DNA from: Phyllobates terribilis
Lineage: Eukaryota
Direction: 5' to 3'
Length of the DNA: 64,000 bases
Assembly (NCBI RefSeq): GCF_046119375.1
Contig: NW_027362765.1
Span: 184,202,001-184,266,000, forward strand
This document shows, in pieces, positions 3,836 to 63,608 of this stretch; position 1 is the stretch's first letter; the number at the start of each line of letters is the position of its first letter. Under the pieces are notes generated by a model, which saw nothing but the letters and a program-made list of their open reading frames with translations, did no database searches and was not told where the DNA came from. The position numbers and the translations under genes are program-made.

Positions 3836-3886
3836 AGAAATATATTTTTTGTTAATTATGACTAGTTAGCACGCTAACTATGAGGA

Positions 3887-35827: not shown

Positions 35828-37457
<1,630 letters not shown>

Positions 37458-38660: not shown

Positions 38661-39729
38661 CGGTTTTAACATACTGTAGTTCCCAACCATACCGAATCCA
38701 GAGGGACTGCCCCGATTTGAGGGAACAGTCCCACTATCCCGGCAGGTCAGTGCTGTATCCTGGCTTCCTCCTACATTCTGAGATGTATTCTCTCCAACAT
38801 CTTCATTGCTCTGTAGTTCCTCCACCACGAGGGGCGGGACAGGCAAGTCTCTGCTCTGCATAAATTTACATTAATTAAATAAATAGTTCTTTTTTACTTG
38901 AGATCTGGTCTCATCGGGATTAAAATCCACAACCTGCATCATTGCTGGCAGTAGCAAAAGTTGTGAGCCACTACCTGCACTGACAAAAATGGGAGGATTT
39001 TATGTATGTTAATATACATTGTACACTATGAAATCACAGGCAGATTGTACAGAGATACATCTGTATATAGCAATGCATTTCTATGTACCTGTTTTCTAGA
39101 GGGAAAATTAAAGTTTTTTTTAGTCCTATAAAATTACTAAAAAATAATGAAAAACACTGCACGTCAAAGCCCAGTATCCAGCCGGCGCTTGTGGCCAATG
39201 AAAGCAGAGAAGAGAGGGAAAGCATGCGCTGGATACTGGGCTGTGACATGTGGTGAAACGCCGCCCACAGCCCAGTCAATCGTGGGTGTGCATATGATTG
39301 GGTCATGCCTGGGTGAATCAAATCTGGAAGTTGACGTGACATCAGTGGATGTCAGCAGTAGAGATGAGCGTTGTTCTACTCGAACTGTTCGCCAATCTCA
39401 AATTCGAGCTGTTTTGGGCGGTGTTCGAGCCGGTCGGCGAACACGAACAATTTGAGAAAAATTCGGCTGTTCGAGGTTATGTTCGATAACTGTTCGTGCA
39501 CCAAAATCATAACTGGATTTTTTCTCAGTAATGATGAAAATTAATGTTAATACGCAGTTTGAGTGTACAGCGGGGCGGGGGGAGGGGCAGGGGATGGATC
39601 TCTGCAGGAACAATGAAGATCTCCATTTTTTTTTCTCTTTCCCGCATTTGCAGTGGGGAGGTGCAATCTGTCAGCCTATCAGCAGCGCACACACGGAGCG
39701 AAGTGCTTTTTTTCACACAAGCAAGGGCA

Positions 39730-39775
39730 TGTGTGATTGGCAGTGTATGTCACATGTCCTTGCCCTATAAGACCA
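39730..39775 (+). promoter_or_regulatory. Possible transposase promoter (reverse CCAAT plus TATA-like)
   Basis: GATTGG at ~39735 and CTATAAGA at ~39765, upstream of the array and ORF. An acceptor-like TTTTTTGTGCAAACAACTCCAG lies just before the ATG. Motif-only inference. Confidence 0.3.
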
Positions 39776-40277
39776 AGCCATTTTCCCCGTTGCCACCATT
39801 TTCTCACTGCTGCAGCTGCGTGTTAGACGGCACCGCTGTTGCTGTGTGCGCTATACCTTGTTAATTTCAAGCCAATTTTCGCACAAATATACAGATAGCT
39901 TGGGAGTAGGGAATAGTTGTGATTGCAGTCCTTTTAAGGACTAGGTTACAGCATTTCCTACGACTTTTATCAGGCAGGTCTGTGCTCTTAAATAGATAGA
40001 TTGTGGGAGTAAAGACTAATTGTAATTGGAGTCCTTTTCAGGACTAGGTTACATCAGTTCCTATCAGTTTTTGCCAGGCAGGTCTGTGCCAGTGCTGTGC
40101 AAGTTTTTTTCACAGCATTTGGCTGAATCTAGCAAAGCTAATCCTTTTTGGCCTATTGCAGAGTGTGTTAGTCAGTGGAGTAGCCTATCTGTGTTGCAAG
40201 ATATACCACCTGTGTATAGAATACCAATTTTTTTACTGCACCTAGTGAAGTAAAATCTTTTGGGCATAGCATCATTC

Positions 40278-41442
40278 TATTAGTCCATCTATACTGACCT
40301 CCATCAGGTTGCAAACTGAATATAATTTTTTTCTGCATCTAGCTCTGAAAAAATATTTGGGCTTCTAGCAGTGTGTGGGACTTGGTCTATTAGTCCATCT
40401 ATACTGACCTCCATCAGGTTGCAAATTAAAAATAATTTTTTTCTTCATTTAGCTCTGAAAAAATATTTGGGCTTCTAGCAGTGTGTGGGACTTGTTCTAT
40501 TAGTCCTTCTATACTGACCTCCAGCAGGTTGCAAATTGAATATAATTTTTTTCTGCATCTAGCTCTGAAAAAATATTTGGGCTTCTAGCGGTGTGTGGGA
40601 CTTGGTCTATTAGTCCATCTATACTGACCTCCATCAGGTTGCAAATTAAAAATAATTTTTTTCTGCATCTAGCTCTGAAAAAATATTTGGGCTTCTAGCA
40701 GCGTGTGGGACTTGGTCTATTAGTCCATCTATACTGACCTCCATCAGGTTGCAAATTAAAAATAATTTTTTTCTGCATCTAGCTCTGAAAAAATATTTGG
40801 GCTTCTAGCAGTGTGTGGGACTTGGTCTATTAGTCCATCTATACTGACCTCCATCAGGTTGCAAATTAAAAATAATTTTTTTCTGCATCTAGCTCTGAAA
40901 AAATATTTGGGCTTCTAGCAGTGTGTGGGACTTGGTCTATTAGTCCATCTATACTGACCTCCATCAGGTTGCAAATTGAATAAAAAAATTTTCTGCATCT
41001 AGCTCTGAAAAAATATTTGGGCTTCTAGCGGTGTGTGGGACTTGGTCTATTAGTCCATCTATACTGACCTCCATCAGGTTGCAAATTAAAAATAATTTTT
41101 TTCTGCATCTAGCTCTGAAAAAATATTTGGGCTTCTAGCAGTGTGTGGGACTTGGTCTATTAGTCCATCTATACTGACCTCCATCAGGTTGCAAATTAAA
41201 AATAATTTTTTTCTTCATTTAGCTCTGAAAAAATATTTGGGCTTCTAGCAGTGTGTGGGACTTGTTCTATTAGTCCTTCTATACTGACGTCCAGCAGGTT
41301 GCAAATTGAATATAATTTTTTTCTGCATCTAGCTCTGAAAAAATATTTGGGCTTCTAGCGGTGTGTGGGACTTGGTCTATTAGTCCATCTATACTGACCT
41401 CCATCAGGTTGCAAATTAAAAATAATTTTTTTCTGCATCTAA
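40278..41442. repeat. 110-bp tandem array, ~10.6 copies, in the hAT copy A leader
   Basis: TATTAGTCC(A/T)TCTATACTGAC starts at 40278, 40388, 40498 and so on up to 41378. Confidence 0.95.
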
Positions 41443-41557
41443 CCCAGCCAATAGTTTTGGCCTAATACCACAGTTTGGCCACTCAGCTCTGCTCGGTTAC
41501 CATCCATTGTTTTTTTGTGCAAACAACTCCAGAGTTGTGAATTAGTTAACCACCAAA

Positions 41558-44500
41558 ATGAGTGGAAAAAGGCCTGCTGCTGGTGGAAAGGGGAATAGGC
41601 GTGTTGGGAAGGGGAAAAAAGGTTGTGTCCGTGGGGTAGGTGCAGAAGAAAGACCATCTTCCAGCCAAACTAAAATGTCTACTTCTTTTAGCGGACAATG
41701 TGATAAGATCCCTTTCTTACGGCCACGCCAATCGCTACAAATTCCAGATGAGGCACAAAAACAGCAGGTGCTTCAACGGATATCAAGTGCTCCTTTAAGT
41801 GGGCTCTCCTCCACATCAACTTCAACATCACAAATACTCCAGTCCTCAAAGGTGTCACCCAAATCGCACTTGCTTCCTCACAGCTCCCAAATCTCCAGCT
41901 GCCCGTCTGAGTATGAGGTAGAACAGATGGTTGAGTCTGCAGAGCTGTTTACTCATACTATAGCCTGGGAATCAGAGGTCGACTCCAGCGCTTCTGTGAA
42001 TCCAGACGAGGAAATGATCTGCACTGATGCCCAGAATCTTTATGAGTCGGATCCAGGACCAGACGCAGAAGGTTCTGACCATAATGTAGACCCTCATTCC
42101 CAAACTGTAACTCCTGTTGGTGGAGACAATGAGGAAGACGATGATAAGACTCAAATACCTGATTGGAGCGACAACTTTAGTTTTTTGCCAGGGCAGGAAC
42201 AGGTTGGCTCTGAGGACGACGGGTGTGATAACGCACAGGGTGATGATGATGAGGTCGGAGATCCCACTTACTGTCAACCCACAGTCAGCCAAGAGATGAG
42301 GTCAGCAGAGGAGGTGGAGGAAGATGCTAGTGACGACGAGGTCAGGTTGCGCCTTCCTGGACAGAGACGTAGTACTGGAAGCACGTCAACAACTGCATCC
42401 TCAAACACAACTCTGCCTCTCACCACAAGTCGTGGTGGCTCTTCAGGTCGCATGGGTGCTAAGCCTTGCATAGCCTGGGCATTTTTTCAGATCGATAAAG
42501 ATGACCCAACTCGTGTTATCTGTAACATTTGTCAGCAAAAGCTAAGTAGAGGCCAAAAAATACATAGTTTGAGTACTTCATGCATGAACCGGCACATGGA
42601 CATGAAGCATAAGTTGCAGTGGGAAGCTCAGTGTGCTACAATGCGGCCTAGCCGGCCGAGCCAATCACCGTCTGCCATATCTTGTGCATCCGCGGCCTCT
42701 TCATCCTCTGTGACTGGGGGGACAGCAGTCACACCTGTTTTGGGGCGCAGACCTGCCACCTCTTTACCCGCAACAGCCAGCGTGATTGGCAGGTCATCAT
42801 TTTCTTTGGAGGTGGTAACACCAGCTGGTGTTGAGCGCTGTCCGACATCGATAGCACCACCTTTGGATCAAGGCAACCTAACATGTCCGCCTGCATCTTC
42901 CTCACAGACCGGCAGTTTGCCGGGGACACCCTTATCAACCCCGTCTAAGCACAATAGCCAGCCCTCGGTCCCTCAGATGTGGACAAGTAAAAGACCATTT
43001 CCTCCTAGCCATGAGAAAGCTAAGAGGTTGAATTTCACCATCTGCAAGCTCTTGGCTACAGAAATGCTGCCTTTCCGCCTGGTGGACACAGAGGATTTTC
43101 GAGACCTTATGTCCGTCGCAGTGCCCCAGTACCAGATGCCCAGTCGGCACTACTTCTCAAAGAAAGGTGTGCCTGCGCTCCACCAGCATGTCGCACACAA
43201 CATCACCGCTTCTTTGAGAAACTCTGTGTGTGACAGGGTGCATTTCACCACAGACACTTGGACGAGTAGGCATGGACAGGGGCGTTACATGTCGCTGACT
43301 GGGCACTGGGTAACTATGGTGACAGCAGGACAAGGGGCTGCTGTCCAAGTCTTGCCGTCCCCACGAGTTGTGCGTCAATCCTCTTTATGTCATTTTTCCT
43401 CCACTGCTTCTGCCTCCTCAACCTCCTCTCGGTCTTCCACCTGCACCCAAAGCCTGTCTGGTCATGCCACAAGCTTTCTAACTGCGCAGAAGGGATCCTG
43501 CACACCTCCTTACTATGCTGGCAGTAGGGCTCAACGTCATCAGGCGGTTTTTACATTGAAATGTCTGGGAAATGTGAGTCACACAGCTGAGGAGTTGTGG
43601 TCAGCTCTGGAGAACCAATTTCATGAATGGTTGTCTCCACTGGACCTGAAACCAGGGAAGGCCGTGTGCGACAATGCTGCAAACCTGGGTGCGGCCCTTC
43701 GCCGGGGCAATGTCACACACGTGCCTTGTATGGCTCACGTGTTGAACCTGGTTGTCCAGCAATTTTTAGCCCACTATCCCAGACTAGATGGCCTTCTGCA
43801 GAGGGCACGGTCGCTGTGTGCTCACTTCCGCCGTTCGCATCCCGCAGCTCAGCGACTTACATCTCTACAGAAGTCGTTGGGCCTGCCACTTCACCGGCTA
43901 AAATGCGATGTGCCTACCCGGTGGAATTCAACTCTGCACATGTTGCAGCGACTGTGGCAGCACCGACAAGCCTTGGTGCAATACGTTCTGACGTATAGCC
44001 TGGGCCAACGAGATTCAGAGGTGGGGCAAATAACGCTGGAGGAGTGGTCTCAGATCAGGGACCTATGCACCCTTCTGCACAGTTTTGAAATGGCGACGAA
44101 GATGTTTAGTGCTGACGATGCCATTATCAGCATGACTATTCCGGTGATTTACATGCTGGAGCACATGTTAAACAGAATTCGGAGTCAGGTGGTGGCACAA
44201 GAGGAGGTGGAGGAAGTAGAGGAGGAGGAGTTGTATGCGGAAGGGCTAACATCTGCAAGGTCCAGACGGTCGGCAGCACCAGGGCGGCAGGCATGTGAGG
44301 GTGGGGGAGATGATTTTACCAGGGCGCATGGTAGCAGCCAAACTAGTGAGGAAGGTGCAGGAGCCCAGGAAGAAGTGGAGGACGAACTGATGGAAGACTC
44401 ATCAGATGAGGGAGACCTTGATCACATTTCTGTTGTGCGAGGTTGGGGGGAGAGGACAGAGGAAGGAAGCATGATTGTTACCTCGCCACCAACACAACAG

Positions 44501-45238
44501 GGACTTGGTGCTCCTGGATGCGCAACACACATGAGTGCCTTCTTGCTGCACTACCTGCAACATGACCCTCGAATTGTGAGAATTAGAAATAATCCTGACT
44601 ACTGGGTTGCCACACTGTTAGATCCCCGGTACAAAAGTAAATTTGCAGAAATTATTCCTGCCATAGAAAGGGATGCACGCATGCAGGAGTATCAGCAGAG
44701 ACTGTTGCAGAATCTTACATGTGCTTTTCCACAAAATACCAGTGGTGCACGTAGTGAATCTCACAGTTCCTACTTGCCAACCGTGGGACCGTCAAGTGTT
44801 CAGCACTCAAACCGTAACAGAACCACAGTATCTGCTGGTAACATCAATTTTGCGGAATCATTTCACCACTTTTTTAGCCCATCCTTTGCAAGGCCACAGG
44901 AGACAAGAAGTCTGACACATAGTCAACGCCTAGAGACGATGGTACAGGAGTATCTCCAAGTAAACATTGAAGCCACGACTGTGTCACTGGACCCTTGCTC
45001 TTTTTGGGCTTCCAATCTGGATAAATGGCCGGAGCTAGCCACTTACGCCTTGGAGATCTTGTCATGCCCCGCAGCCAGCGTTCTGTCTGAACGTGTGTTC
45101 AGCGCTGCTGGTGGTGTGCTGACAGATAAGCGCACGCGGCTCTCCACTGATAATGTAGACAGACTCACGTTCATAAAGATGAACAAATCATGGATCCGAA
45201 TCGACTTTTCTACCCCTGTGTCATCCTGGGGAGAGTAA
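41558..45238 (+). CDS. hAT (Ac-family) transposase, 1226 aa, apparently intact
   Basis: Basic N-terminus; zf-BED (AWAFF...CNICQQKL...RHMDMKH); catalytic TTDTWTS and CDNAAN; CxxH (PCMAH); DVPTRWNST; dimerisation domain WPELATYALEILSCPAASVLSERVFS containing the catalytic E. Single uninterrupted ORF. Confidence 0.95.
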   Translation: MSGKRPAAGGKGNRRVGKGKKGCVRGVGAEERPSSSQTKMSTSFSGQCDKIPFLRPRQSLQIPDEAQKQQVLQRISSAPLSGLSSTSTSTSQILQSSKVSPKSHLLPHSSQISSCPSEYEVEQMVESAELFTHTIAWESEVDSSASVNPDEEMICTDAQNLYESDPGPDAEGSDHNVDPHSQTVTPVGGDNEEDDDKTQIPDWSDNFSFLPGQEQVGSEDDGCDNAQGDDDEVGDPTYCQPTVSQEMRSAEEVEEDASDDEVRLRLPGQRRSTGSTSTTASSNTTLPLTTSRGGSSGRMGAKPCIAWAFFQIDKDDPTRVICNICQQKLSRGQKIHSLSTSCMNRHMDMKHKLQWEAQCATMRPSRPSQSPSAISCASAASSSSVTGGTAVTPVLGRRPATSLPATASVIGRSSFSLEVVTPAGVERCPTSIAPPLDQGNLTCPPASSSQTGSLPGTPLSTPSKHNSQPSVPQMWTSKRPFPPSHEKAKRLNFTICKLLATEMLPFRLVDTEDFRDLMSVAVPQYQMPSRHYFSKKGVPALHQHVAHNITASLRNSVCDRVHFTTDTWTSRHGQGRYMSLTGHWVTMVTAGQGAAVQVLPSPRVVRQSSLCHFSSTASASSTSSRSSTCTQSLSGHATSFLTAQKGSCTPPYYAGSRAQRHQAVFTLKCLGNVSHTAEELWSALENQFHEWLSPLDLKPGKAVCDNAANLGAALRRGNVTHVPCMAHVLNLVVQQFLAHYPRLDGLLQRARSLCAHFRRSHPAAQRLTSLQKSLGLPLHRLKCDVPTRWNSTLHMLQRLWQHRQALVQYVLTYSLGQRDSEVGQITLEEWSQIRDLCTLLHSFEMATKMFSADDAIISMTIPVIYMLEHMLNRIRSQVVAQEEVEEVEEEELYAEGLTSARSRRSAAPGRQACEGGGDDFTRAHGSSQTSEEGAGAQEEVEDELMEDSSDEGDLDHISVVRGWGERTEEGSMIVTSPPTQQGLGAPGCATHMSAFLLHYLQHDPRIVRIRNNPDYWVATLLDPRYKSKFAEIIPAIERDARMQEYQQRLLQNLTCAFPQNTSGARSESHSSYLPTVGPSSVQHSNRNRTTVSAGNINFAESFHHFFSPSFARPQETRSLTHSQRLETMVQEYLQVNIEATTVSLDPCSFWASNLDKWPELATYALEILSCPAASVLSERVFSAAGGVLTDKRTRLSTDNVDRLTFIKMNKSWIRIDFSTPVSSWGE

Positions 45239-45442
45239 AAGCTTGATGATTGGTTAAAATCACCCTACCAACCGTTTTAAGCTTTCAAATTACTAATCAT
45301 GTTTATCTGTATCTTGACTGGAAAATAATTTGGGCTTTGTAGCAGTGTGCAGCACTGATCCTATTAGGCCATCTATAATAAGCTTCACCAGATTTAAAAT
45401 TAAAAATAATTTTTAGCTGCATCTAGCCCGGAAAATAATTTT

Positions 45443-47008
45443 GGGGCTCCGAGATGCGCAAGACACATAAGTGCCTTCTTGCTGCACTACCTGCAGCATG
45501 ACCCTCATATTGTCAGAATTCGAAGTAATCATGACTACTGGGTTGCCACACTCTTAGATCCCCCAAACTTTTCGATCAACCTTTTCATTTTAATAAAGAC
45601 CAAAAAAATGGTCATTTTTGAAATTATAAGCATTAGCAGGTTGTTAGAAACTGAAATCAAACAGTTTTCAACTCAAAACTTTATTCTAGGTGATGTTACA
45701 TTTTCACATAGGACCCCTTGTTCGAAAGGAGCTTCTGAACTCTCTCGTCCATTGAATTTGTCAGGTTTTGGATGGTTTCTGCTTCAATTGTTTTGCATGA
45801 GGACAGAATACCCTCCCAGAGCTGTTGCTTAGATGTGAACTGCCTCCCGCCATCATAGACACTCCTTTTAATGATGCTCCAAAGGTTCTGAATGGGGTAG
45901 AGGTCAGGAGAGCATGGGGGTCACACCATAAGTTTGTCCCCTTTTATGCCCATATCAGCCAGAGATGCAGATGTTTTATGTGCAGCATGAGATGGTGCAT
46001 TATCATGCAGAAAAATGATCTTGCTGTGAAATACACGGTTCTTCTTCTTGAACCATGGCAGGAAGTGCTGTTTGAGAAAATCCACATACATTATGGAGTT
46101 CATCTTTAGCGCCTTCAGGGATCCTAAAGGGGCCGACAATCTCTCTCCCCATGATTCCAGCCCAAAACATTACTCCACCTCCTCCTTGTTGGCGCTGTAG
46201 CCGTGTTTGCGTGGGGTGTCCATCAACCAGCCATCCTCCACTCCATTCATCTGGACCATCGAGCGCTGCACGGCACTCATCCGTGAACAAAACAGTTTTG
46301 AAATCAGTCTTCATGTAATGTTTGGCCCACTGGAGCCGTTTCTGCTTGTGTGAAGTGGATAGAGGAGGTCGACAGGATGGCGTATGCACAGCTGCAAACC
46401 TCTGAAGGACCCTGCATCTTGTTGTTCGGGGGACGTTGGAGGCACAAGCAGCTTCAAAAACTTGTCTGCTGCTATGACTAGGCTTTTTTGCCGCTGCTGT
46501 TTCAACCTGACGTAATTGCCTGTAGGAAAGAGTCCTCAATTTGCCCTTATCAGCACGCACACGTGTGTACTGTGAATCAGCTACATACTTCTTGATTGCC
46601 AAGACACTTCATCCTGATCATCGCACAATGTTGATTGTAGTCATGCCTTGACCTAAACACTCCACAATTTGTTGCTTCTCAGCAGCCGACACATCCTTTT
46701 TCTTTCCCATTTTGGCAGAAAATGTAGGCTGCTTAATAATGTGAGAGAGCCTTCTTAAGTAGTCTTGCCTTTCATTGGACACACCTGCCAAACTAATTAG
46801 CACAGGTGTCTGCAATTGCTTACAGTGATATAAAGAGCCCTGACACACATCACCATCAATGAGTTTAACTGACAAACAAACAAATTCTTCCCTTATCACT
46901 CCTAAACACTTTTTGCATAATAATTTGGAACGCGGTGTACATGTGCTTTTCCACAAAACACCAGTGGTTCACGTAGTGAATCTTACAGTTCTAACTTGCC
47001 AACCGTGG
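45443..47008 (+). pseudogene. Second, diverged fragment of the hAT transposase (45443-45563 and 46938-47008) split by the Tc1-like insertion
   Basis: Matches ~44508-44627 (LHYLQHDP...ATLLDP) and ~44716-44787 of the intact ORF. The ~90 bp between them is missing. Confidence 0.85.
45564..46937 (-). mobile_element. Tc1-like DD37E (TRT-type) element remnant, one TIR retained
   Basis: Broken ORF 45696-46710 (MGKKKDVS...VLFTDEC...GGGVMFWAGI...HDNAPSH...PIQNLW). 37 residues lie between the second D and the degenerate E position. End TA|CACCGCGTTCCAAATTATTATGCA. Confidence 0.85.
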
Positions 47009-47009
47009 T

Positions 47010-48835
47010 CTGTATGGAATTGTTCAATAAAGGGCCCAAAATTAAGATAACATAGATGGGAGAGGTCTCTATGAATAGGAATTCCTAAGTATTTGATACC
47101 CTGTGAGGGCCAGGCAAAGGGAAAGTTGGACTGGATGGAATCCTATATGAATTTAGGGAGGGAGACATCGAGGGCCTCAGACTTCGCTGCATTGATTTTA
47201 AAATTTTACCATGTAACAAAGTGATCTATTTCAGCCATAACAGCAGGGATGGATATATGTGATTGAGTGATATATACTAGGACATCATCAGCAAATAGAG
47301 AGCACTTGTACTCGGTGCCTCCCACCTCAATCCACCTAATATTGGGGTTATGGCGAATTGATGAGAGCAGGTGCTCCGTCACTAGGATGTATAAGAGAGG
47401 GGACAGAGGACATCCCTGCCTTGTCCCATTGGTGATTGTGAAAGGTGATGAAAATGTTCTGACGCACCCCCTGGGCCTTGGGACACCCGGAGCCGGACCC
47501 TTTTTGGTGGATGCTGGTGGTTGTAGTCTTCGTGGCGGCGATCCGGTTCCGTGGCTCAGGGCGGTCAAACCAGTGGCGGAACTATTTATGTGGTTTTGAT
47601 GTTTAAATGTCCGACTATGCCACCCGTGGATTGCGGTCAGAGTGAACCGCCGCTACAGGGCAGACCGCTAAGGCTGGTGTTGTGGGTGCAGCAGAGCGTA
47701 GCATAACTCCCCACGGGAGGAGTATAGCCTCAGGGCAGTGTATGCGGAGGATGGGGGTGATGGTGCAGGGCAGCAGCAGTAACGACACGGAGTCAGTGAT
47801 GCAGTTCAGGGCCTTTACTCACAGTTCTTATTATCCAGACCACGTCTGCAGGTAACGGCTGCCCACGTCGTACTGTGCTCACCAGGTGAGGGGCTCAGAC
47901 AACTCCCAGATAACTTTGGAGCGCTTCACAGGACCCCCTTTGTGTGTCCTTTGTCTGGCCTTTCTTACCAACACTTCTGTCCGGCTGCCTCGGGCCTCCT
48001 CTTGGTAAACTTGGCGCCAGTTTCCCTGACCCTATGTGGTGCCTTCCTAGCGGGTGGAGCAAGGGGCTGCGCCACATAAAATGTCAGAGCCTCCGGTTTC
48101 TAGCTGAGGGTCGTTTCCTGCCTCCACTAGTTCGGGGACCGGTCTCCCCCTTTGGCCTGACCCCTCCACGCAGGTGGATTCGGGCGTGCGGTGGCGACTC
48201 GCCCGTCCGCACCCCTGGGATCCCTTCATTCCTCGTTCCTGGAGCCTTCTCCGCTCCTCTTCCTTCCTTCTCCCTCTTGCAGGCCTGGGCCTCTGTTACT
48301 AGGCCCGCCTCCAGAGCAGAGCTCATGCAGAGCCCCTGCTCCCTGCCACTTCTGCTCAGACTTCTCTGCACTGAACTAAGATGGTGCCCACCTTTTATAC
48401 TCCCTTCTCAATGCACCCAGGAACTGCTTCCTCCCTGCTCCTGCACTGCAGGGTTCCCCTTCCTCAGTGTTCCCTCCCCCCACTCCAGCCAGGGACAGGG
48501 ACTGTCGTGCCCATCTCAGGGGCATATTGGTCGCCCTGCCCCACGGCAATGTGGTGTAATGCATGCAGGTGTCGGGTCCTGATCCACACTCCATCCTTAT
48601 CTGAGAGTGAGATATCACACCTCTGGGTGAGGTGCAATACGTCTGTAGCAACCGAGCCCTCGGTGCTACAGTTCCATTTATCTTCAGCCTAGGTGACGTA
48701 TTGTGATACAGGGCCGTGATTTTGGCTATAAAAGGGTCCCCTAGACCCCTACCCCAAGCTTTTTAAGAGAATCATATATGGCGTGCCAGGAGACTCTATG
48801 GAATGCTTTCTCAGCATCCAACGAGAGTATCTACT
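47010..48835 (-). pseudogene. L1-type reverse transcriptase fragment split by a solo LTR
   Basis: LSLDAEKAF...KING|TFSSPFTITNGTRQGCPLSP...LFADD...KINAAKS...KYLGI on the minus strand. Confidence 0.9.
47460..48670 (-). mobile_element. Solo LTR (1211 bp) inside the L1 fragment of copy A
   Basis: TG...CA ends and 4-bp TSD GTTC at 47456-47459 and 48671-48674. Confidence 0.9.
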
Positions 48836-48941
48836 TACAAATTTTTAACTGCATCTAGCCAAGGAAATACTTTGTGCCTAGTAGCAGTGTCTGCTAGTCA
48901 GCGGATTATCCTGGCTGTTAAGCAAGCTACACCACCTGTAG

Positions 48942-49208
48942 TTTGGACACTTAATTTTTTCAAAGGAAATGCTTCGGGACCACGGGATACTTAGTGAAGA
49001 GCATCAGGAGGCACCCCAAGGCATAGGGGCTGGGACTGGCACTAGGATGCCTTGCGGTGGACAGCCGAGCTCGATCCTTATAAAAGCTTTTTAACTGCAG
49101 CAGCTTTAGTGGACGCTACTGGAGCTGGAATTACGCGGCTGCTGGCATGAGACTTGCCCTCCAATAGATCCTTGTAAATGGATTTAAAGTGTATTCATTC
49201 AAATTAGA
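48942..49208 (-). pseudogene. Degenerate 18S rRNA fragment (helix 18 / 530-loop through part of V4) in copy A
   Basis: The reverse complement contains TTGGAGGGCAAGTC..TGCCAGCAGCCGCG-TAATTCCAGCTCCA..GCTGCAGTTAAAAAGC..GATGCTCTT..CTTTGAAAAAATTA, collinear with vertebrate 18S. Confidence 0.9.
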
Positions 49209-50225
49209 GGGACAATTTAAATTAAAAAGCTTAGAGCTGCCTCCACCACAGGGGGGCTCTCTCGACCCACCAGCGGACAGGCACCAGTATTGGGAGAGGG
49301 GGGCTGGCCGTCAGGGTTCACCGCGGCTCTGGCACAAACCCGGCGACACGGAGGTGGCACGGGCAGGAGCGGACTGGCCGTCTCGGCTTCTCACTTTTTG
49401 GATTTTAGAAGGGCATGACATGCCTATATCTGTGTCTCCCCCTCCTTTTACTCCTCCACCTCTTTTCTTTTCGCATGACTATATGTACTTGTCACTTTTC
49501 CATGTGTTAGTTGTGTCTTCTGAGCAGTTTGTCAGCTTTTGGACACCTTTGAAGGTGTTTTCTATGTGTTTCTATGTGTTTTTGTTTGCCTGCCATTGGT
49601 TTTAACGGTGTTCGAAGGTGTTCGACGAACAGTTCGACGAACAGTTCGGCGAACACACGGGTGTTCGACGAACCGAACCGAACTCGAACACTATGGGGGT
49701 GGCTCAACACTAGTCAGCAGTAGTGTTGAGCCACCCCCGTAGTGTTCGAGTTCGGTTCGGTTCGTCGAACACCCGTGTGTTCGCCGAACTGTTCGTCGAA
49801 CTGTTCGTCGAACACCTTCGAACACCGTTAAAACCAATGGCAGGCAAACAAAAACACATAGAAACACATAGAAAACACCTTCAAAGGTGTCCAAAAGCTG
49901 ACAAACTGCTCAGAAGACATAACTAACACATGGAAAAGTGACAAGTACATATAGTCATGCGAAAATAAAAGAGGTGGAGGAGTAAAAGGAGGGGGAGACA
50001 CAGATATAGGCATGTCATGCCCTTCTAAAATCCAAAAAGTGAGAAGCCGACACGGCCAGTCCGCTCCTGCCCGTGCCACCTCCGTGTCGCCGGGTTTGTG
50101 CCAGAGCCGCGGTGAACCCTGACGGCCAGCCCCCCTCTCCCAATACTGGTGCCTGTCCGCTGGTGGGTCGAGCGAGCCCCCCTGTGGTGGAGGCAGCTCT
50201 AAGCTTTTTAATTTAAATTGTCTCT

Positions 50226-50492
50226 CTAATTTGAATGAATACACTTTAAATCCATTTACAAGGATCTATTGGAGGGCAAGTCCCATGCCAGCAGCCGCGG
50301 TAATTCCAGCTCCAGTAGCGTCCACTAAAGCTGCTGCAGTTAAAAAGCTTTTATAAGGATCGAGCTCGGCTGTCCACCGCAAGGCATCCTACTGCCAGTC
50401 CCAGCCCCTATGCCTTGGGGTGCCTCCTGATGCTCTTCACTAAGTATCCCATGGTCCCGAAGCATTTCCTTTGAAAAAATTAAGTGTCTAAA
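50226..50492 (+). pseudogene. Degenerate 18S rRNA fragment in copy B
   Basis: GGATCTATTGGAGGGCAAGTCCCATGCCAGCAGCCGCGGTAATTCCAGCTCCAGTAGCG...CTTTGAAAAAATTAAGTGTC. Confidence 0.9.
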
Positions 50493-50597
50493 CTACAGGT
50501 GGTGCAGCTTGCTTAACAGCCGGGATAATCCGCTGACTAGCAGACACTGCTACTAGGCACAAAGTATTTCCTGGGCTAGATGCAGTTAAAAATTTGT

Positions 50598-52420
50598 AAT
50601 TAGATACTCTCGTTGGATGCTGAGAAAGCATTCCATAGAGTCTCCTGGCACGCCATATATGATTCTCTTAAAAAGCTTGGGGTAGGGGTCTAGGGGACCC
50701 TTTTATAGCCAAAATCACGGCCCTGTATCGCAATACGTCACCTAGGCTGAAGATAAATGGAACTGTAGCACCCTGAGGGCTCGGTTGCTACAGACGTATT
50801 GCACCTCACCCAGAGGTGTGATATCTCACTCTCAGGTAAGGATGGAGTGTGGATCAGGACCCGACACCTGCATGCATTACACCACATTGCCGTGGAGCAG
50901 GGCGACCAATATGCCCCTGAGATGGGCACGACAGTCCCTGGCTGGAGTGGGGGGAGGGAACACTGAGGAAGGGGAACCCTGTAGTGCAGGAGCAGGGAGG
51001 AAGCAGTTCCTGGGTGCATTGAGAAGGGAGTATAAAAGGTGGGCACCATCTTAGTTCAGTGCAGAGAAGTCTGAGCAGAAGTGGCAGGGAGCAGGGGCTC
51101 TGCATGAGCTCTGCTCCGGAGGCGGGCCTAGTAACAGAGGCCCAGGTCTGGAAGAGGGAGAAGGAAGGAAGAGGAGCGGAGAAGGCTCCAGGAACGAGGA
51201 ATGAAGGGATCCCAGGGGTGTGGACGGGCGAGTCGCCACCGCACGCCCGAATCCACCTGCGTGGAGGGGTCAGGCCAAAGGGGGAGACCGGTCCCCGAAC
51301 TAGTGGAGGCAGGAAACGACCCTCAGCTAGAAACCGGAGGCTCTGACATTTTATGTGGCGCAGCCCCTCGCTACACCCGCTAGGAAGGCACCACATAGGG
51401 TCAGGGAAACTGGCGCCAAGTTTACCAAGAGGAGGCCCGAGGCAGCCGGACAGAAGTGTTGGTAAGAAAGGCCAGACAAAGGACACACAAAGGGGGTCCT
51501 GTGAAGTGCTCCAAAGTTATCTGGGAGTTGTCTGAGCCCCTCACCTGGTGAGCACAGTACGACGTGGGCAGCCGTTACCTGCAGACGTGGTCTGGATAAT
51601 AAGAACTGTGAGTAAAGGCCCTGAACTGCATCACTGACTCCGTGTCGTTACTGCTGCTGCCCTGCACCATCACCCCCATCCTCCGCATACACTGCCCTGA
51701 GGCTATACTCCTCCCGTGGGGAGTTATGCTACGCTCTGCTGCACCCACAACACCAGCCTCAGCGGTCTGCCCTGTAGCGGCGGTTCACTCTGACCGCAAT
51801 CCACGGGTGGCGTAGTCGGACATTTAAACATCAAAACCACATAAATAGTTCCGCCACTGGTTTGACCGCCCTGAGCCACGGAACCGGGTCGCCGCCACGA
51901 AGACTACAACCACCAGCATCCACCAAAAAGGGTCCGGCTCCGGGTGTCCCAAGGCCCAGGGGGTGCGTCAGAACATTTTCATCACCTTTCACAATCACCA
52001 ATGGGACAAGGCAGTGATGTCCTCTGTCCCCTCTCTTATACATCCTAGTGACGGAGCACCTGCTCTCATCAATTCGCCATAACCCCAATATTAGGTGGAT
52101 TGAGGTGGGAGGCACCGAGTACAAGTGCTCTCTATTTGCTGATGATGTCCTAGTATATATCACTCAATCACATATATCCATCCATGCTGTTATGGCTGAA
52201 ATAGATCACTTTGTTACATGGTAAAATTTTAAAATCAATGCAGCGAAGTCTGAGGCCCTCGATGTCTCCCTCCCCAAATCCATATAGGATTCCATCCAGT
52301 CCAACTTTCCCTTTGCCTGGCCCTCACAGGGTATCAAATACTTAGGAATTCCTATTCATAGAGACCTCTCCCATCTATGTTATCTTAATTTTGGGCCCTT
52401 TATTGAACAACTCCATACAG
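50598..52420 (+). pseudogene. L1-type RT fragment in copy B, split by a solo LTR
   Basis: Mirror of 47010-48835. Confidence 0.88.
50764..51970 (+). mobile_element. Solo LTR (1207 bp) in copy B
   Basis: TGTAGCACC...GTGCGTCA ends, TSD GAAC at 50760-50763 and 51971-51974, and TATAAAA at ~51031. Confidence 0.9.
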
Positions 52421-52492
52421 ACCACGGTTGGCAAGTTAGAACTGTAAGATTCACTACGTGAACCACTGGTGTTTTGTGGAAAAGCACATGTA

Positions 52493-53866
52493 CACTGCGT
52501 TCCAAATTATTATGCAAAAAGTGTTTAGGAGTGATAAGGGAAGAATTTGTTTGTTTGTCAGTTAAACTCATTGATGGTGATGTGTGTCAGGGCTCTTTAT
52601 ATCACTGTAAGCAATTGCAGACACCTGTGCTAATTAGTTTGGCAGGTGTGTCCAATGAAAGGCAAGACTACTTAAGAAGGCTCTCTCACATTATTAAGCA
52701 GCCTACATTTTCTGCCAAAATGGGAAAGAAAAAGGATGTGTCGGCTGCTGAGAAGCAACAAATTGTGGAGTGTTTAGGTCAAGGCATGACTACAATCAAC
52801 ATTGTGCGATGATCAGGATGAAGTGTCTTGGCAATCAAGAAGTATGTAGCTGATTCACAGTACACACGTGTGCGTGCTGATAAGGGCAAATTGAGGACTC
52901 TTTCCTACAGGCAATTACGTCAGGTTGAAAGAGCAGCGGCAAAAAAGCCTTGTCATAGCAGCAGACAAGTTTTTGAAGCTGCTTGTGCCTCCAACGTCCC
53001 CCGAACAACAAGATGCAGGGTCCTTCAGAGGTTTGCAGCTGTGCATGCGCCATCCTGTCGACCTCCTCTATCCACTTCACACAAGCAGAAACTGCTCCAG
53101 TGGGCCAAACATTACATGAAGACTGATTTCAAAACTGTTTTGTTCACGGATGAGTGCCGTGCAGCGCTCGATGGTCCAGATGGATGGAGTGGAGGATGGC
53201 TGGTTGATGGACACCCCACGCAAACATGGCTACAGCGCCAACAAGGAGGAGGTGGAGTAATGTTTTGGGCTGGAATCATGGGGAGAGAGATTGTCGGCCC
53301 CTTTAGGATCCCTGAAGGCGCTAAAGATGAACTCCATAATGTATGTGGATTTTCTCAAACAGCACTTCCTGCCATGGTTCAAGAAGAAGAACCGTGTATT
53401 TCACAGCAAGATCATTTTTCTGCATGATAATGCACCATCTCATGCTGCACATAAAACATCTGCATCTCTGGCTGATATGGGCATAAAAGGGGACAAACTT
53501 ATGGTGTGACCCCCCATGCTCCCCTGACCTCTACCCCATTCAGAACCTTTGGAGCATCATTAAAAGGAGTGTCTATGATGGCGGGAGGCAGTTCACATCT
53601 AAGCAACAGCTCTGGGAGGGTATTCTGTCCTCATGCAAAACAATTGAAGCAGAAACCATCCAAAACCTGACAAATTCAATGGACGAGAGAGTTCAGAAGC
53701 TCCTTTCGAACAAGGGGTCCTATGTGAAAATGTAACATCACCTAGAATAAAGTTTTGAGTTGAAAACTGTTTGATTTCAGTTTCTAACAACCTGCTAATG
53801 CTTATAATTTCAAAAATGACCATTTTTTTGGTCTTTATTAAAATGAAAAGGTTGATCGAAAAGTTT
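52493..53866 (+). mobile_element. DD37E Tc1-like remnant in copy B
   Basis: Broken ORF 52720-53735 with the same frameshifts as in copy A. Confidence 0.85.
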
Positions 53867-54193
53867 GGGGGATCTAAGAGTGTGGCAACCCAGTAGTCAT
53901 GATTACTTCGAATTCTGACAATATGAGGGTCATGCTGCAGGTAGTGCAGCAAGAAGGCACTTATGTGCCTTGCGCATCTCGGAGCCCCAAAATTATTTTC
54001 CAGGCTAGATGCAGCTAAAAAATATTTTTAATTTTAAATCTGGTGAAGCTTTAGTATAGATGGCCTAATAGGATCAGTGCTGCACACTGCTACAAAGCCC
54101 AAATTATTTTCCAGTCAAGATACAGATAAACATGATTAGTAATTTGAAAGCTTAAAACGGTTGGTAGGGTGATTTTAACCAATCATCAAGCTT

Positions 54194-57100
54194 TTACTCT
54201 CCCCAGGATGACACAGGGGTAGAAAAGTCGTTTCGGATCCATGATTTGTTCATCTTTATGAACGTGAGTCTGTCTACATTATCAGTGGAGAGCCGCGTGC
54301 GCTTATCTGTCAGCACACCACCAGCAGCGCTGAACACACGTTCAGACAGAACGCTGGCTGCGGGACATGACAAGATCTCCAAGGCGTAAGTGGCTAGCTC
54401 CGGCCATTTATCCAGATTGGAAGCCCAAAAAGAGCAAGGGTCCAGTGACACAGTCGTGGCTTCAATGTTTACTTGGAGATACTCCTGTACCATCGTCTCT
54501 AGGCGTTGACTATGTGTCAGACTTCTTGTCTCCTGTGGCCTTGCAAAGGATGGGCTAAAAAAGTGGTGAAATGATTCCGCAAAATTGATGTTACCAGCAG
54601 ATACTGTGGTTCTGTTACGGTTTGAGTGCTGAACACTTGACGGTCCCACGGTTGGCAAGTTGGAACTGTGAGATTCACTACGTGCACCACTGGTATTTTG
54701 TGGAAAAGCACATGTAAGATTCTGCAACAGTCTCTGCTGATACTCCTGCATGCGTGCATCCCTTTCTATGGCAGGAATAATTTCTGCAAATTTACTTTTG
54801 TACCGGGGATCTAACAGTGTGGCAACCCAGTAGTCAGGATTATTTCTAATTTTCACAATTCGAGGGTCATGTTGCAGGTAGTGCAGCAAGAAGGCACTCA
54901 TGTGTGTTGCGCATCCAGGAGCACCAAGTCCCTGTTGTGTTGGTGGCGAGGTAACAATCATGCTTCCTTCCTCTGTCCTCTCCCCCCAACCTCGCACAAC
55001 AGAAATGTGATCAAGGTCTCCCTCATCTGATGAGTCTTCCATCAGTTCGTCCTCCACTTCTTCCTGGGCTCCTGCACCTTCCTCACTAGTTTGGCTGCTA
55101 CCATGCGCCCTGGTAAAACCATCTCCCCCACCCTCACATGCCTGCCGCCTTGGTGCTGCTGACCGTCTGGACCTTGCAGATGTTAGCCCTTCCGCATACA
55201 ACTCCTCCTCCTCTACTTCCTCCACCTCCTCTTGTGCCACCACCTGACTCCGAATTCTGTTTAACATGTGCTCCAGCATGTAAATCACCGGAATAGTCAT
55301 GCTGATAATGGCATCGTCAGCACTAAACATCTTCGTCGCCATTTCAAAACTGTGCAGAAGGGTGCATAGGTCCCTGATCTGAGACCACTCCTCCAGCGTG
55401 ATTTGCCCCACCTCTGAATCTCGTTGGCCCAGGCTATACGTCAGAACGTATTGCACCAGGGCTTGTCGGTGCTGCCACAGTCGCTGCAACATGTGCAGAG
55501 TTGAATTCCACCGGGTAGGCACATCGCATTTTAGCCATACAAGGCACGTGTGTGACATTGCCCCGGCGAAGGGCCGCACCCAGGTTTGCAGCATTGTCGC
55601 ACACGGCCTTCCCTGGTTTCAGGTCCAGTGGAGACAACCATTCATGAAATTGGTTCTCCAGAGCTGACCACAACTCCTCAGCTGTGTGACTCACATTTCC
55701 CAGACATTTCAATGTAAAAACCGCCTGATGACGTTGAGCCCTACTGCCAGCATAGTAAGGAGGTGTGCAGGATCCCTTCTGCGCAGTTAGAAAGCTTGTG
55801 GCATGACCAGACAGGCTTTGGGTGCAGGTGGAAGACCGAGAGGAGGTTGAGGAGGCAGAAGCAGTGGAGGAACTTTGACATAAAGAGGATTGACGCACAA
55901 CTCGTGGGGACGGCAAGACTTGGACAGCAGCCCCTTGTCCTGCTGTCACCATAGTTACCCAGTGCCCAGTCAGCGACATGTAACGCCCCTGTCCATGCCT
56001 ACTCGTCCAAGTGTCTGTGGTGAAATGCACCCTGTCACACACAGAGTTTCTCAAAGAAGCGGTGATGTTATGTGCGACATGCTGGTGGAGCGCAGGCACA
56101 CCTTTCTTTGAGAAGTAGTGCCGACTGGGCATCTGGTACTGGGGCACTGCGACGGACATAAGGTCTCGAAAATCCTCTGTGTCCACCAGGCGGAAAGGCA
56201 GCATTTCTGTAGCCAAGAGCTTGCAGATGGTGAAATTCAACCTCTTAGCTTTCTCATGGCTAGGAGGAAATGGTCTTTTACTTGTCCACATCTGAGGGAC
56301 CGAGGGCTGGCTATTGTGCTTAGACGGGGTTGATAAGGGTGTCCCCGGCAAACTGCCGGTCTGTGAGGAAGATGCAGGCGGACATGTTAGGTTGCCTTGA
56401 TCCAAAGGTGGTGCTATCGATGTCGGACAGCGCTCAACACCAGATGGTGTTACCACCTCCAAAGAAAATGATGACCTGCCAATCACGCTGGCTGTTGCGG
56501 GTAAAGAGGTGGCAGGTCTGCGCCCCAAAACAGGTGTGACTGCTGTCCCCCCAGTCACAGAGGATGAAGAGGCCGCGGATGCACAAGATATGGCAGATGG
56601 TGGTTGGCCCGGCCGGCTAGGCCGCATTGTAGCACACTGAGCTTCCCACTGCAACTTATGCTTCATGTCCATGTGCCGGTTCATGCATGAAGTACTCAAA
56701 CTATGTATTTTTTGGCCTCTACTTAGCTTTTGCTGACAAATGTTACAGATAACACGAGTTGGGTCATCTTTATCGATCTGAAAAAATGCCCAGGCTATGC
56801 AAGGCTTAGCACCCATGCGACCTGAAGAGCCACCACGACTTGTGGTGAGAGGCAGAGTTGTGTTTGAGGATGCAGTTGTTGACGTGCTTCCAGTACTACG
56901 TCTCTGTCCAGGAAGGCGCAACCTGACCTCGTCGTCACTAGCATCTTCCTCCACCTCCTCTGCTGACCTCATCTCTTGGCTGACTGTGGGTTGACAGTAA
57001 GTGGGATCTCCGACCTCATCATCATCACCCTGTGCGTTATCACACCCGTCGTCCTCAGAGCCAACCTGTTCCTGCCCTGACAAAAAACTAAAGTTGTCGC

Positions 57101-57731
57101 TCCAATCAGGTATTTGAGTCTTATCATCGTCTTCCTCATTGTCTCCACCAACAGGAGTTACAGTTTGGGAATGAGGGTCTACATTATGGTCAGAACCTTC
57201 TGCGTCTGGTCCTGGATCCGACTCATAAAGATTCTGGGCATCAGTGCAGATCATTTCCTCGTCTGGATTCACAGAAGCGCTGGAGTCGACCTCTGATTCC
57301 CAGGCTATAGTATGAGTAAACAGCTCTGCAGACTCAACCATCTGTTCTACCTCATACTCAGACGGGCAGCTGGAGATTTGGGAGCTGTGAGGAAGCAAGT
57401 GCGATTTGGGTGACACCTTTGAGGACTGGAGTATTTGTGATGTTGAAGTTGATGTGGAGGAGAGCCCACTTAAAGGAGCACTTGATATCCGTTGAAGCAC
57501 CTGCTGTTTTTGTGCCTCATCTGGAATTTGTAGCGATTGGCGTGGCCGTAAGAAAGGGATCTTATCACATTGTCAGGTAAAAGAAGTAGACAGTTTAGTT
57601 TGGCTGGAAGATGGTCTTTCTTCTGCAGATGTTACTGTTGCTTTAACACCTACCCCACGGACACAACCTTTTTTCCCCTTCCCAACACGCCTATTCCCCT
57701 TTCCACCAGCAGCAGGCCTTTTTCCACTCAT
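54194..57731 (-). pseudogene. Inactivated hAT transposase of copy B
   Basis: ATG at 57731, in-frame TGA at 57573-57575 (GGA in copy A), and a 164-bp frameshifting deletion at the AGCC junction 55533-55536. Confidence 0.92.
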
Positions 57732-57847
57732 TTTGGTGGTTAACTAATTCACAACTCTGGAGTTGTTTGCACAAAAAAACAATGGATGGTAACCGAGCAG
57801 AGCTGAGTGGCCAAACTGTGGTATTAGGCCAAAACTATTGGCTGGGT

Positions 57848-59790
57848 TAGATGCAGAAAAAAATTATTTTGAATTTGCAACCTGATGGAGGTCAGTATAG
57901 ATGGATTAATAGAACAAGACCCACACACAGCTAGAAGCCCAATATTTTTTCAGAGGTAGATGCAGGAAAAAAATATATTCAGTTTGCAACCTGATGGAGG
58001 TCAGTATAGATGGACTAATACAACAAGTCCCACACACAGCTAGAAGCCCAAATATTTTTTCAGAGGTACTGTAGATGCAGATAAAAATTAGTTTTAATTT
58101 GCAACCTGATGGAGGTCAGTATAGATGGACTAATAGAGAAAGTCCGACACACTACTAGAAGGCCAAATATTTTTTCAGAGCTAGATGCAGAAAAAAATTA
58201 TATTCAGTTTGCAACCTGATGGAGGTCAGTATAGATGGATTAATAGAACAAGACCCACACACAGCTAGAAGCCCAATATTTTTTCAGAGGTAGATGCAGA
58301 AAAAAATATATTCAGTTTGCAACCTGATGGAGGTCAGTATAGATGGACTAATACAACAAGTCCCACACACAGCTAGAAGCCCAATATTTTTTCAGAGGTA
58401 GATGCAGAAAAAAATATATTCAGTTTGCAACCTGATGGAGGTCAGTATAGATGGACTAATACAACAAGTCCCACACACAGCTAGAAGCCCAATATTTTTT
58501 CAGAGGTAGATGCAGAAAAAAATATATTCAGTTTGCAACCTGATGGAGGTCTGTATAGATGGATTAATAGAACAAGTCCCACACACAGCTAGAAGCCCAA
58601 TATTTTTTCAGAGGTAGATGCAGAAAAAAATATATTCAGTTTGCAACCTGATGGAGGTCAGTATAGATGGACTAATACAACAAGTCCCACACACAGCTAG
58701 AAGCCCAAATATTTTTTCAGAGGTACTGTAGATGCAGTTAAAAATTAGTTTTAATTTGCAACCTGATGGAGGTCAGTATAGATGGACTAATAGAGAAAGT
58801 CCGACACACTACTAGAAGGCCAAATATTTTTTCAGAGCTAGATGCAGAAAAAAATTATATTCAGTTTGCAACCTGATGGAGGTCAGTATAGATGGACTAA
58901 TAGAGAAAGTCCGACACACTACTAGAAGGCCAAATATTTTTTCAGAGCTAGATGCAGAAAAAAATTATATTCAGTTTGCAACCTGATGGAGGTCAGTATA
59001 GATGGATTAATAGAACAAGACCCACACACAGCTAGAAGCCCAATATTTTTTCAGAGGTAGATGCAGAAAAAAATATATTCAGTTTGCAACCTGATGGAGG
59101 TCAGTATAGATGGACTAATACAACAAGTCCCACACACAGCTAGAAGCCCAATATTTTTTCAGAGGTAGATGCAGAAAAAAATATATTCAGTTTGCAACCT
59201 GATGGAGGTCAGTATAGATGGACTAATACAACAAGTCCCACACACAGCTAGAAGCCCAAATATTTTTTCAGAGGTACTGTAGATGCAGATAAAAATTAGT
59301 TTTAATTTGCAACCTGATGGAGGTCAGTATAGATGGACTAATAGAGAAAGTCCGACACACTACTAGAAGGCCAAATATTTTTTCAGAGCTAGATGCAGAA
59401 AAAAATTATATTCAGTTTGCAACCTGATGGAGGTCAGTATAGATGGACTAATAGAGAAAGTCCGACACACTACTAGAAGGCCAAATATTTTTTCAGAGCT
59501 AGATGCAGAAAAAAATTATATTCAGTTTGCAACCTGATGGAGGTCAGTATAGATGGATTAATAGAACAAGACCCACACACAGCTAGAAGCCCAATATTTT
59601 TTCAGAGGTAGATGCAGAAAAAAATATATTCAGTTTGCAACCTGATGGAGGTCAGTATAGATGGACTAATACAACAAGTCCCACACACAGGTAGAAGCCC
59701 AAATATTTTTTCAGAGGTACTGTAGATGCAGATAAAAATTAGTTTTAATTTGCAACCTGGTGGAGGTTAGTATAGATGGACTAATAGAAT
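57848..59790. repeat. ~110-bp tandem array, about 18 copies, in the copy B leader
   Basis: About 18 GCAACCTG(A/G)TGGAGG cores. Variant units with a GTACTGTAG insertion recur at ~58067, 58722, 59275 and 59717. Confidence 0.93.
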
Positions 59791-61795
59791 GATGCTATGC
59801 CCAAAAGATTTTACTTCACTAGGTGCAGTAAAAAAATTGGTATTCTATACACAGGTGGTATATCTTGCAACACAGATAGGCTACTCCACTGACTAACACA
59901 CTCTGCAATAGGCCAAAAGGATTAGCTTTGCTAGATTCAGCCAAATGCTGTGAAAAAAACTTGCACAGCACTGGCACAGACCTGCCTGGCAAAAACTGAT
60001 AGGAACTGATGTAACCTAGTCCTGAAAAGGACTCCAATTACAATTAGTCTTTACTCCCACAACCTATCTATTTAAGAGCACAGACCTCCCTGATAAAAGT
60101 CGTAGGAAATGCTGTAACCTAATCCTTAAAAGGACTGCAATCACAACTATTCCCTACTCCCAAGCTATCTGTAGATTTGTGCGAAAATTGGCTTGAAATT
60201 AACAAGGTATAGCGCACACAGCAACAGCGGTGCCGTCTAACACGCAGCTGCAGCAGTGAGAAAATGGTGGCGACGGGGAAAATGGCTTGGTCTTATAGGG
60301 CAAGGACATGTGACATACACTGCCAATGACACATGCCCTTGCTTGTGTTAAAAAAAGCACTTCGCTCCGTGTGTGCGCTGCTGATAGGCTGACAGATTGC
60401 ACCTCCCCACTGCAAATGCGGGAAAGAGAAAAAAAAATGGAGATCTTCATTGTTCCTGCAGAGATCCATCCCCTGCCCCTCCCCCCACCCCGCTGTACAC
60501 TCAAACTGCGTATTAATATTAATTTTCATCATTACTGAGAAAAAATCCAGTTATGATTTTGGTGCACGAACAGTTATCGAACATAACCTCGAACAGCCGA
60601 ATTTTTCTCAAATTGTTCGTGTTCGCCGAACGGCTCGAACACCGCCCAAAACAGCTCAAATTTGAGATTGGCGAACAGTTCGAGTAGAACAACGCTCATC
60701 TCTAGTCAGCAGTGGCTGCAACCGGGGTCATGTGATGCAGACTGAGCGAGCAGCAATAGCGCCTCTCACAGGCACATATGGCAGCAGTATGTATTTACAA
60801 AAATATTTATTTGAAAGGTGTAAATCGATGGACGCTTTATACAATGTAGTGGACCCCCTCTTTAACTTTATTGGATGGAGTCGGCCACAGCTTTATTTAA
60901 AATTTTATTTTCCAACCAACTCTTTAACCACAAAACAAGTGAAACGTCCAGAACCCGAAATGGTATGCACCAGCGGACTCCTGGTGGGCAAGTCCGTCTT
61001 CAGTTCCTTTAAGTCTCCAACCAGATAATTTTATTTATTTTACTCACTTATATAGCGCCATTAATTCCACAACGCTTTGGTGACATTATAACCGCCAGCT
61101 GTGACTTGAGTCTCAGAAATTCTAGAAACATAGAAAACAGTATAAGTATCTTGTACAATTACAAGGTAACACATGATAAGGTAGGGAGGGAGGGAAGCTC
61201 CTTCAGCAGGTACCGGTAAAGAAACCAAAAAAATGGGAAGGCGGCATTTTATCCAGGTGGCCACAAGTTCAAATTAGACAAAGGCGGGGGGAGGAGCAGG
61301 GGAGGAATAAGGCACTTAACATAACCACACATTAGGGGAAGACCAGGACAATGTTAAACACGGATGGCACACTGATGTATGCTTTACGTGTTTTAACGGA
61401 CCCATAGACTAATATTGGCCCTTATCATCCACGCTGCTGGTAAAAAACGGACATGACTCCATGTGGTTTACACGAAAACATGGTCCATGTAAAAATACAG
61501 ACATGTGAGCAGCCCCATAGGTTATAATTGTTACGTGTGGGATTCGTGAAAAAAACGAATACCGCACATACAAGAAACACAGACGTGTGAAGGGGGCCTA
61601 AGTGGGTCTATTTCTTTACATGGCACTCATATGTTATACTGAATAAATCAAGATATTTTAAAACTTTTGCTTTCATTTTTTTCATTATTTGCATATCATT
61701 AACATGTCAATCTATCCTGTGATTTCCATAATTACATGACTTTTCCTTCTTGGTGTTATAATTTCAATGTTGAGGAGTGTATATAGATATTTATA

Positions 61796-63608
<1,813 letters not shown>

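Follow-up and report, generated by a model that had tools for sequence, protein, structure and literature searches.

A cargo-laden hAT transposon family of Phyllobates terribilis, mobilised as 9-12 kb units with layered remnants of Tc1, L1, LTR and ribosomal DNA

The stretch of DNA analysed here, referred to as the window, comprises 64,000 nucleotides of the Phyllobates terribilis assembly GCF_046119375.1 (contig NW_027362765.1, positions 184,202,001 to 184,266,000) and contains a 21-kb palindrome formed by two copies, A and B, of a long hAT transposon lying tail to tail. Copy A occupies window positions 39359..49712 on the plus strand (10,354 bp, with the ends TAGAGATGAGCG ... GGCTCAACACTA), and copy B, which has the cargo of copy A and a transposase with a 164-bp deletion, occupies 49721..60704 on the minus strand (10,984 bp). 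The 8-bp target site GTCAGCAG is found on the plus strand at the left (39351..39358), in the centre, where it is common to A and B (49713..49720), and at the right (60705..60712). An earlier note on this DNA had ascribed to each copy its own target site duplication (TSD) and clean terminal inverted repeats (TIRs); instead, a single 8-mer is present three times and the TIRs are imperfect, with 9 of 12 bases matching. The triple 8-mer is explained by double insertion into one target site, and since A and B share it, the window alone is no proof of independent mobility. The genome-wide data support the view that members of this family moved as units of 9-12 kb.

The 5' arm of copy A includes a tandem array of 110-bp units (40276..41441, plus strand, 10.6 units), the length of which differs among copies. 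The cargo occupies the 3' arm, from the transposase stop to the 3' end, and its foreign pieces all lie on the minus strand. It begins with a post-stop region containing a unit similar to the 110-bp one (45239..45440, plus strand); in locus L059 the repeat of this region is 75% identical to the 5' array of copy A and 86-87% identical to the arrays of sister hAT lineages. Next comes transposase fragment 1, derived from a sister hAT (45441..45563, plus strand; 89% identity to the frame of copy A and 90-94% to sister lineages), then a broken Tc1 element (45564..46937, minus strand), and then transposase fragment 2 (46938..47008, plus strand; 93% to the frame of copy A and up to 97% to sister lineages). 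One TIR of the Tc1 remnant adjoins the TA at 46938-46939, while about 150 bp including the other TIR are missing in comparison with free copies; the match to a Tc1-type transposase (Pfam HTH_Tnp_Tc3_2, E=1.7e-4) is below the curated cut-off. Because both transposase fragments, like the post-stop repeat, are nearer to sister lineages than to copy A itself, the Tc1 element was probably brought in within part of a sister copy.

The next layer is a reverse transcriptase fragment split into two parts (47009..47459, RVT_1, E=1.7e-10, and 48671..48830, both on the minus strand), which we take, from its motifs, to belong to the L1 clade; in older relatives the element is longer by about 1.4 kb. Between the parts lies a solo long terminal repeat (LTR) of 1.21 kb (47460..48670), which reads TG...CA on the minus strand and is flanked by a 4-bp GTTC duplication. 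Its ends, its short TSD, the empty sites and the existence of related two-LTR elements all agree with this assignment. Among the free relatives seen, the nearest have 82-89% identity, including one two-LTR pair at 84%. No close free donor (at least 95% identity) was present among 20 fetched LTR ends without the following G, of which 12 were mutated cargo and eight were free relatives at 67-89%. Further towards the 3' end there is a single 113-bp unit (48829..48941, plus strand), a relic of an array that is longer in the oldest copies, and a scrap of 18S ribosomal DNA (rDNA) at 48942..49209 (minus strand; Rfam 70 bits), which has 84% identity to L226, an 18S copy not carried by a hAT. The piece at 49229..49390 (minus strand) is 79% identical to GC-rich DNA that lies upstream of the 18S of L226 and is probably an external transcribed spacer. 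Thus, profile, Rfam and repeat evidence agree that the Tc1, reverse transcriptase, solo LTR and rDNA pieces named in the earlier note are real, and the two transposase fragments and the piece from upstream of 18S are added to its list. No host protein-coding fragment was recognised in the cargo, where only the rDNA piece has a recognisable counterpart, L226 at 84%, that is not a transposable element (TE).

Comparison of copies A and B confirmed that the order of the cargo and its junctions are identical in both. From 41442 to the 3' end, 66 of 8,101 aligned bases differ, in addition to eight indels. Most of the frame breaks are common to both copies, as had been supposed, with the exception of 1-bp indels at 45915 (Tc1) and 49133 (18S) and the 164-bp deletion in the transposase of B. 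The 99% likeness of the arms and their common 8-mer could be taken as a sign of local duplication, fold-back or gene conversion within the palindrome. This explanation is exceedingly improbable and was rejected, as the cargo junctions occur in tens of thousands of copies genome-wide (54,609-69,226) and A and B were mutual nearest neighbours in 0 of 6 segments compared. The tail of B is only 0.1% distant from L061 and 0.1-0.4% from L061 and L057, which lie on another contig, as against 1.4% from A. Since A and B are not nearest relatives, the palindrome is to be read as a double insertion and not as a local duplication; it is likely that a second copy, coming from another donor, landed in the target duplication of the first.

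Tail-to-tail dimers around one 8-bp target occur at 33 sites genome-wide, seven of which have one spacer in common and are likely duplicates; cargo was present on both sides in nine of 15 fetched dimers, the one in the window being counted among them. Dimers with a TSD at the junction have been described for Drosophila TEs that inserted twice at one target site, an outcome favoured by target-site preference (bioRxiv 10.1101/158386). In most of its analyses that study disregarded inverted dimers; the present case is a tail-to-tail palindrome of 21 kb.

Both strands of the 10.57-Gb genome were searched with at most one mismatch, and a reversed control gave 0 matches. The junction between the hAT fragment and Tc1 was found 54,609 times, the junction between the fragment and L1 69,226 times, the L1-LTR junction 58,834 times and the region of the transposase stop 69,993 times. 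The junction search proposed in the earlier note therefore gave dispersed matches, and the outcome of a single locus did not occur. The main sample consisted of the first 30 of the 69,993 stop matches listed, fetched as 15 kb each, six of them being extended further. The Tc1 junction was present in all 30 copies when up to three mismatches were allowed; 12 of them have 2-3 mismatches there, which accounts for the low count of this junction. The L1 junction was present in 28 copies, and the LTR in 25, with an empty site in two and the region not covered in three. Cargo-free young members were absent (0 of 30) from these stop-picked copies, and a search for a Tc1-free version of fragment 1 gave transposase frames, mostly of sister lineages.

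Matched TSDs, mutually different, flank 13 of the 30 copies (11 exact, two with one mismatch), and matching TSDs were also found in 11 of 14 LTR-free copies that were extended, one of which has a full frame. The expectation of distinct 8-bp TSDs was thus borne out. The 3' flanks fit the pattern NTNNNNAN, with T in 49 and A in 46 of 54 cases. If the family had spread chiefly through segmental duplication or ectopic recombination instead of transposition, this would account for the common 3' flank of L017 and L019, for the TSDs swapped between L021 and L023 and for the seven dimer sites with one spacer; with 24 of 44 sampled copies bounded by matching but different TSDs, and with the target pattern kept in the 3' flanks, such a mode of spread is considered very improbable. 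The data support the earlier note in that the cargo was mobilised as a unit of about 10 kb, but its assembly in an ancestor took at least four steps, with losses, and fixation is confined to the dominant young subfamily, older forms being different.

The 3' end of the family occurs about 102,000 times in the genome. Among 30 sampled 3' ends, 20 have cargo, two belong to a long inverted sister lineage, one is unclear and seven match the family over the last 200 bp only; a family 5' TIR within 1.5 kb, as expected of short non-autonomous forms, was found in 0 of 30. The whole family is estimated at 0.6-0.7 Gb, or about 6% of the assembly (70,000 copies of 9-10 kb), and its cargo at about 0.25 Gb. 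Repeat annotation would score this 0.25 Gb as Tc1, LINE, LTR and rRNA sequences and so suggest bursts of elements that had not moved on their own.

The transposase frame of copy A is intact and encodes 1226 amino acids (41558..45238, plus strand). It comprises a BED finger, a DDE core and a C-terminal dimerisation domain, as revealed by profile matches (zf-BED, E=4e-10; Dimer_Tnp_hAT, E=2e-14) and by the motifs D, D, CxxH, W and E, which are presumed to be the catalytic ones. The short TIRs of hAT elements start with YARNG (PMC3014272), and those of copy A start with TAGAG and TAGTG. Together with the 8-bp TSDs, seen as the triple 8-mer in the window and as matched pairs in the sampled copies, these features place the family among hAT elements. 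Full frames were found in copy A and in five of the 30 sampled copies.

When lineages are compared, the dN/dS ratio of the transposase is about 0.5, with values of 0.26-0.38 for the C-terminal part in most comparisons, as is typical of purifying selection, to which the coding sequence appears to have been subject between lineages. In young copies, private changes show a dN/dS of 0.92 and changes present in at least three copies one of 0.39 (Fisher p=0.035), a pattern expected if inserted copies decay and active donors stay functional. The idea of a large, cargo-tolerant autonomous hAT lineage that retains its transposase is consequently upheld, autonomy being predicted from the intact frame and its selection. 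The strongest named protein relatives (E < 1e-40) are nearly all from frogs and are annotated as 'ZBED4-like' or 'ZBED6-like'. These anuran hAT transposases likewise possess a BED finger and a hAT dimerisation domain but are merely 30-50% identical to the transposase of copy A, and no close named relative was present among 7,989 candidates scored.

The order in which the layers were gained can be read from older forms. The LTR-empty site occurs 6,088 times in the genome and lies in hAT context in 30 of 30 fetched cases, which indicates that the LTR inserted directly into the element. Free L1 as a source of the LTR-empty matches was rejected (0 of 30 fetched). A phylogenetic tree of 54 tails was constructed with rows of more than 25% gaps excluded and rooted on one Tc1-free copy. 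In it, all 26 LTR-bearing copies fall into a single clade (UFBoot 100) that lies within 25 LTR-free copies, and three Tc1-free copies lie outside this set. The mean pairwise distance is 1.8% among LTR-bearing and 3.7% among LTR-free copies. The Tc1-free forms contain several kilobases of other cargo, one of them with L1 longer by about 1.4 kb and a DIRS-type piece.

The 18S scrap was found without a nearby L1 in eight of 20 loci examined. In the oldest copies (L227-L237) the 18S scrap is less decayed, the spacer piece is longer, and there is a 3' array of 113-bp units as well as about 600 bp of a reverse transcriptase that has been lost from the young family and that we assume, from its motifs, to be of DIRS type. 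Data labelled as organisms A to E consist of contigs, 'RNA?' runs included, and give no strand or expression-level information. In the contigs of organisms B and C the joint is LTR-free and L1 continues as in the older form, and those of A, D and E match the LTR-bearing form. Tc1 has other flanks in the contigs of B and C, among them the Tc1 contig of B. A raw RNA run from organism F (X21) gave two reads, so this run does not contain the element. In a contig of run X1, position 44770 is joined to 46993, so that the frame passes straight to fragment 2 and the end of the frame and Tc1 are skipped; this joint is likely a recombinant between the frame and the duplicate piece.

The tree, the older forms and the contigs of organisms B and C support the order rDNA, L1, Tc1 swap, LTR. 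The oldest forms would have carried the rDNA and DIRS-type pieces, and L1 would have been inserted at the second step. At the third step, recombination or gap repair may have exchanged several kilobases of old cargo for part of a sister hAT that bore Tc1, and may have shortened L1, a mechanism we infer from the end states. Finally, an LTR element would have inserted at GTTC and been reduced to a solo LTR, after which the LTR-bearing lineage presumably produced most of the present copies. Dated in this way, the layers provide a clean internal clock for the hAT family and its host clade.

It is highly probable that the dead Tc1, L1, LTR and rDNA pieces are neutral hitchhikers gathered step by step. 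The transposase would require the ends alone, and whatever landed in the interval from the stop codon to the 3' end would be copied along. The cargo is read as neutral because the divergence of Tc1 in LTR-free copies from copy A (5-6%) is close to the synonymous rate (3-6%) and because layers have also been lost or cut, namely the DIRS pieces, most of L1 and part of the spacer. The orientation of the layers gives some ground for another reading, in which the cargo was selected, either through small RNAs produced from antisense read-through and directed against competitors or through a regulatory advantage of the LTR behind the last burst. Each of the six foreign layers that became fixed lies antisense to the transposase, and the LTR-bearing clade is about tenfold more numerous than the LTR-empty sites. 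However, the repeated losses and the near-synonymous divergence of Tc1 speak against selection, later private LTR-element insertions are mostly antisense too (six of eight orientable ones), and chance alone can let a young clade dominate. Selected cargo is accordingly an unlikely explanation. A little less likely still is its specific form, a trap in which read-through RNA of the rDNA, two DIRS pieces, L1, Tc1 and LTR, made from tens of thousands of copies, gives small RNAs against rivals; if true, the gain of cargo would help a 10-kb autonomous hAT to reach about 6% of a giant genome.

Neutral, stepwise accumulation in an autonomous element that moves as a unit thus remains the preferred account, and several points weigh against it. 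Neutrality does not predict the common antisense orientation of six of six layers, for which the two-sided chance is 1 in 32. The fetched copies all come from contig C1, nearly all from its first 60 Mb, and picks by exact match favour young copies, so the share of intact frames (5/30) may be too high. Apart from the matched cases, TSDs were non-matching in four and swapped in two of the 30 stop-picked copies, and for 11 the fetched DNA did not include both ends. The dN/dS ratios were counted without transition correction. The copies recombine, so that no single tree fits the element throughout, and branches among the LTR-free copies have low support. No intermediate of the third step was found.

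Among described systems, hobo_AC of Anolis carolinensis comes nearest. This autonomous hAT is 9-15 kb long, has 8-bp TSDs and TIRs that begin with TAG, contains class 1 and class 2 fragments and raises the copy number of its passengers (PMC3014272). As here, a long autonomous hAT moves nested TE fragments as a unit; the likeness is one of architecture and cargo. According to that report, hobo_AC has 290 copies and its short non-autonomous forms are more numerous, and its authors consider that long DNA transposons remain low-copy and favour the capture of genomic blocks (PMC3014272). By contrast, about 70,000 long copies are present here among about 102,000 matching 3' ends, a preponderance of short forms over long ones was not observed, and direct insertion, as opposed to block capture, is demonstrated for the LTR by the empty site. 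A cargo-laden autonomous hAT is therefore already known, and it is the scale and the dominance of long forms that differ. An estimated share of about 6% of a genome for one long DNA transposon is contrary to the anole pattern, where long forms are rare and short derivatives win, and together with the readable layered history it is what makes the family worthy of note.

Pack-TIRs, such as Pack-hAT-N8_XT of the western clawed frog, carry captured host DNA and have spread with distinct TSDs; the captures there are small (median 224 bp), and the four reference-genome cases that are multicopy have a handful of copies (PMC8277862). The earlier note had called the family Pack-like in spirit. This fits the rDNA piece alone, as the remaining cargo is TE-derived and the carrier encodes its transposase. 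No published description of the family was found in the literature; Repbase, Dfam and supplements lay outside this search and may list it.

The family has had side effects of two kinds, retroelement insertions at the 18S scrap and rearrangement mediated by its copies. A search for insertions at a single base of the 18S scrap within the hAT (window position about 49130) gave 633 exact genome matches; all 20 fetched (L166-L185) were in hAT context and had T-rich tails, and a zf-RVT domain was present in the inserting retroelement of the one insertion tested. Membership of the Tx1 clade may be considered as a lead. Only one of the 20 insertions is in an LTR-bearing copy. Most LTR-bearing copies are without one base beside the site, but age confounds this comparison. 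Non-LTR elements of the Tx1 clade are known at fixed sites in DNA transposons, Tx1 in Tx1D and Tx1-Mar in Mariner-N4_AMi (PMC4494074). There the site belongs to the DNA transposon itself, and here it lies in the 18S scrap borne by the transposon. A search with an 18S motif gave 802 matches, and since 11 of 12 fetched were older hAT copies, this number is not an rDNA count.

On contig C1, at about 1.648-1.738 Mb, inverted copies approximately 80 kb apart (L021/L022/L206 and L023/L024) have swapped TSDs, GTTGCCAG/CTAGGAAA in one and CTAGGAAA/GTTGCCAG in the other; the missing member was predicted and then found. Such an exchange marks an inversion that arose through recombination between the two copies. 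In a sister lineage (L133/L134, L135/L136, L137/L138, L143/L144, L147/L148; four TSD-matched) the transposase is inverted relative to the ends and has no start. In some of its copies the ends are 97-99% similar to those of the young family and the frame just 91-94%, which suggests an exchange of ends between lineages.

Elsewhere in the window, an older hAT transposase remnant with 66-71% identity to the frame of copy A is located at 26058-27645. The regions 7113-8410, 3299-3880 with 22900-23534, and 35816-37461 with 61784-63622 contain a sequence distantly related (66%) to the cargo LTR, along with minisatellites and other repeats that are dispersed or inverted.

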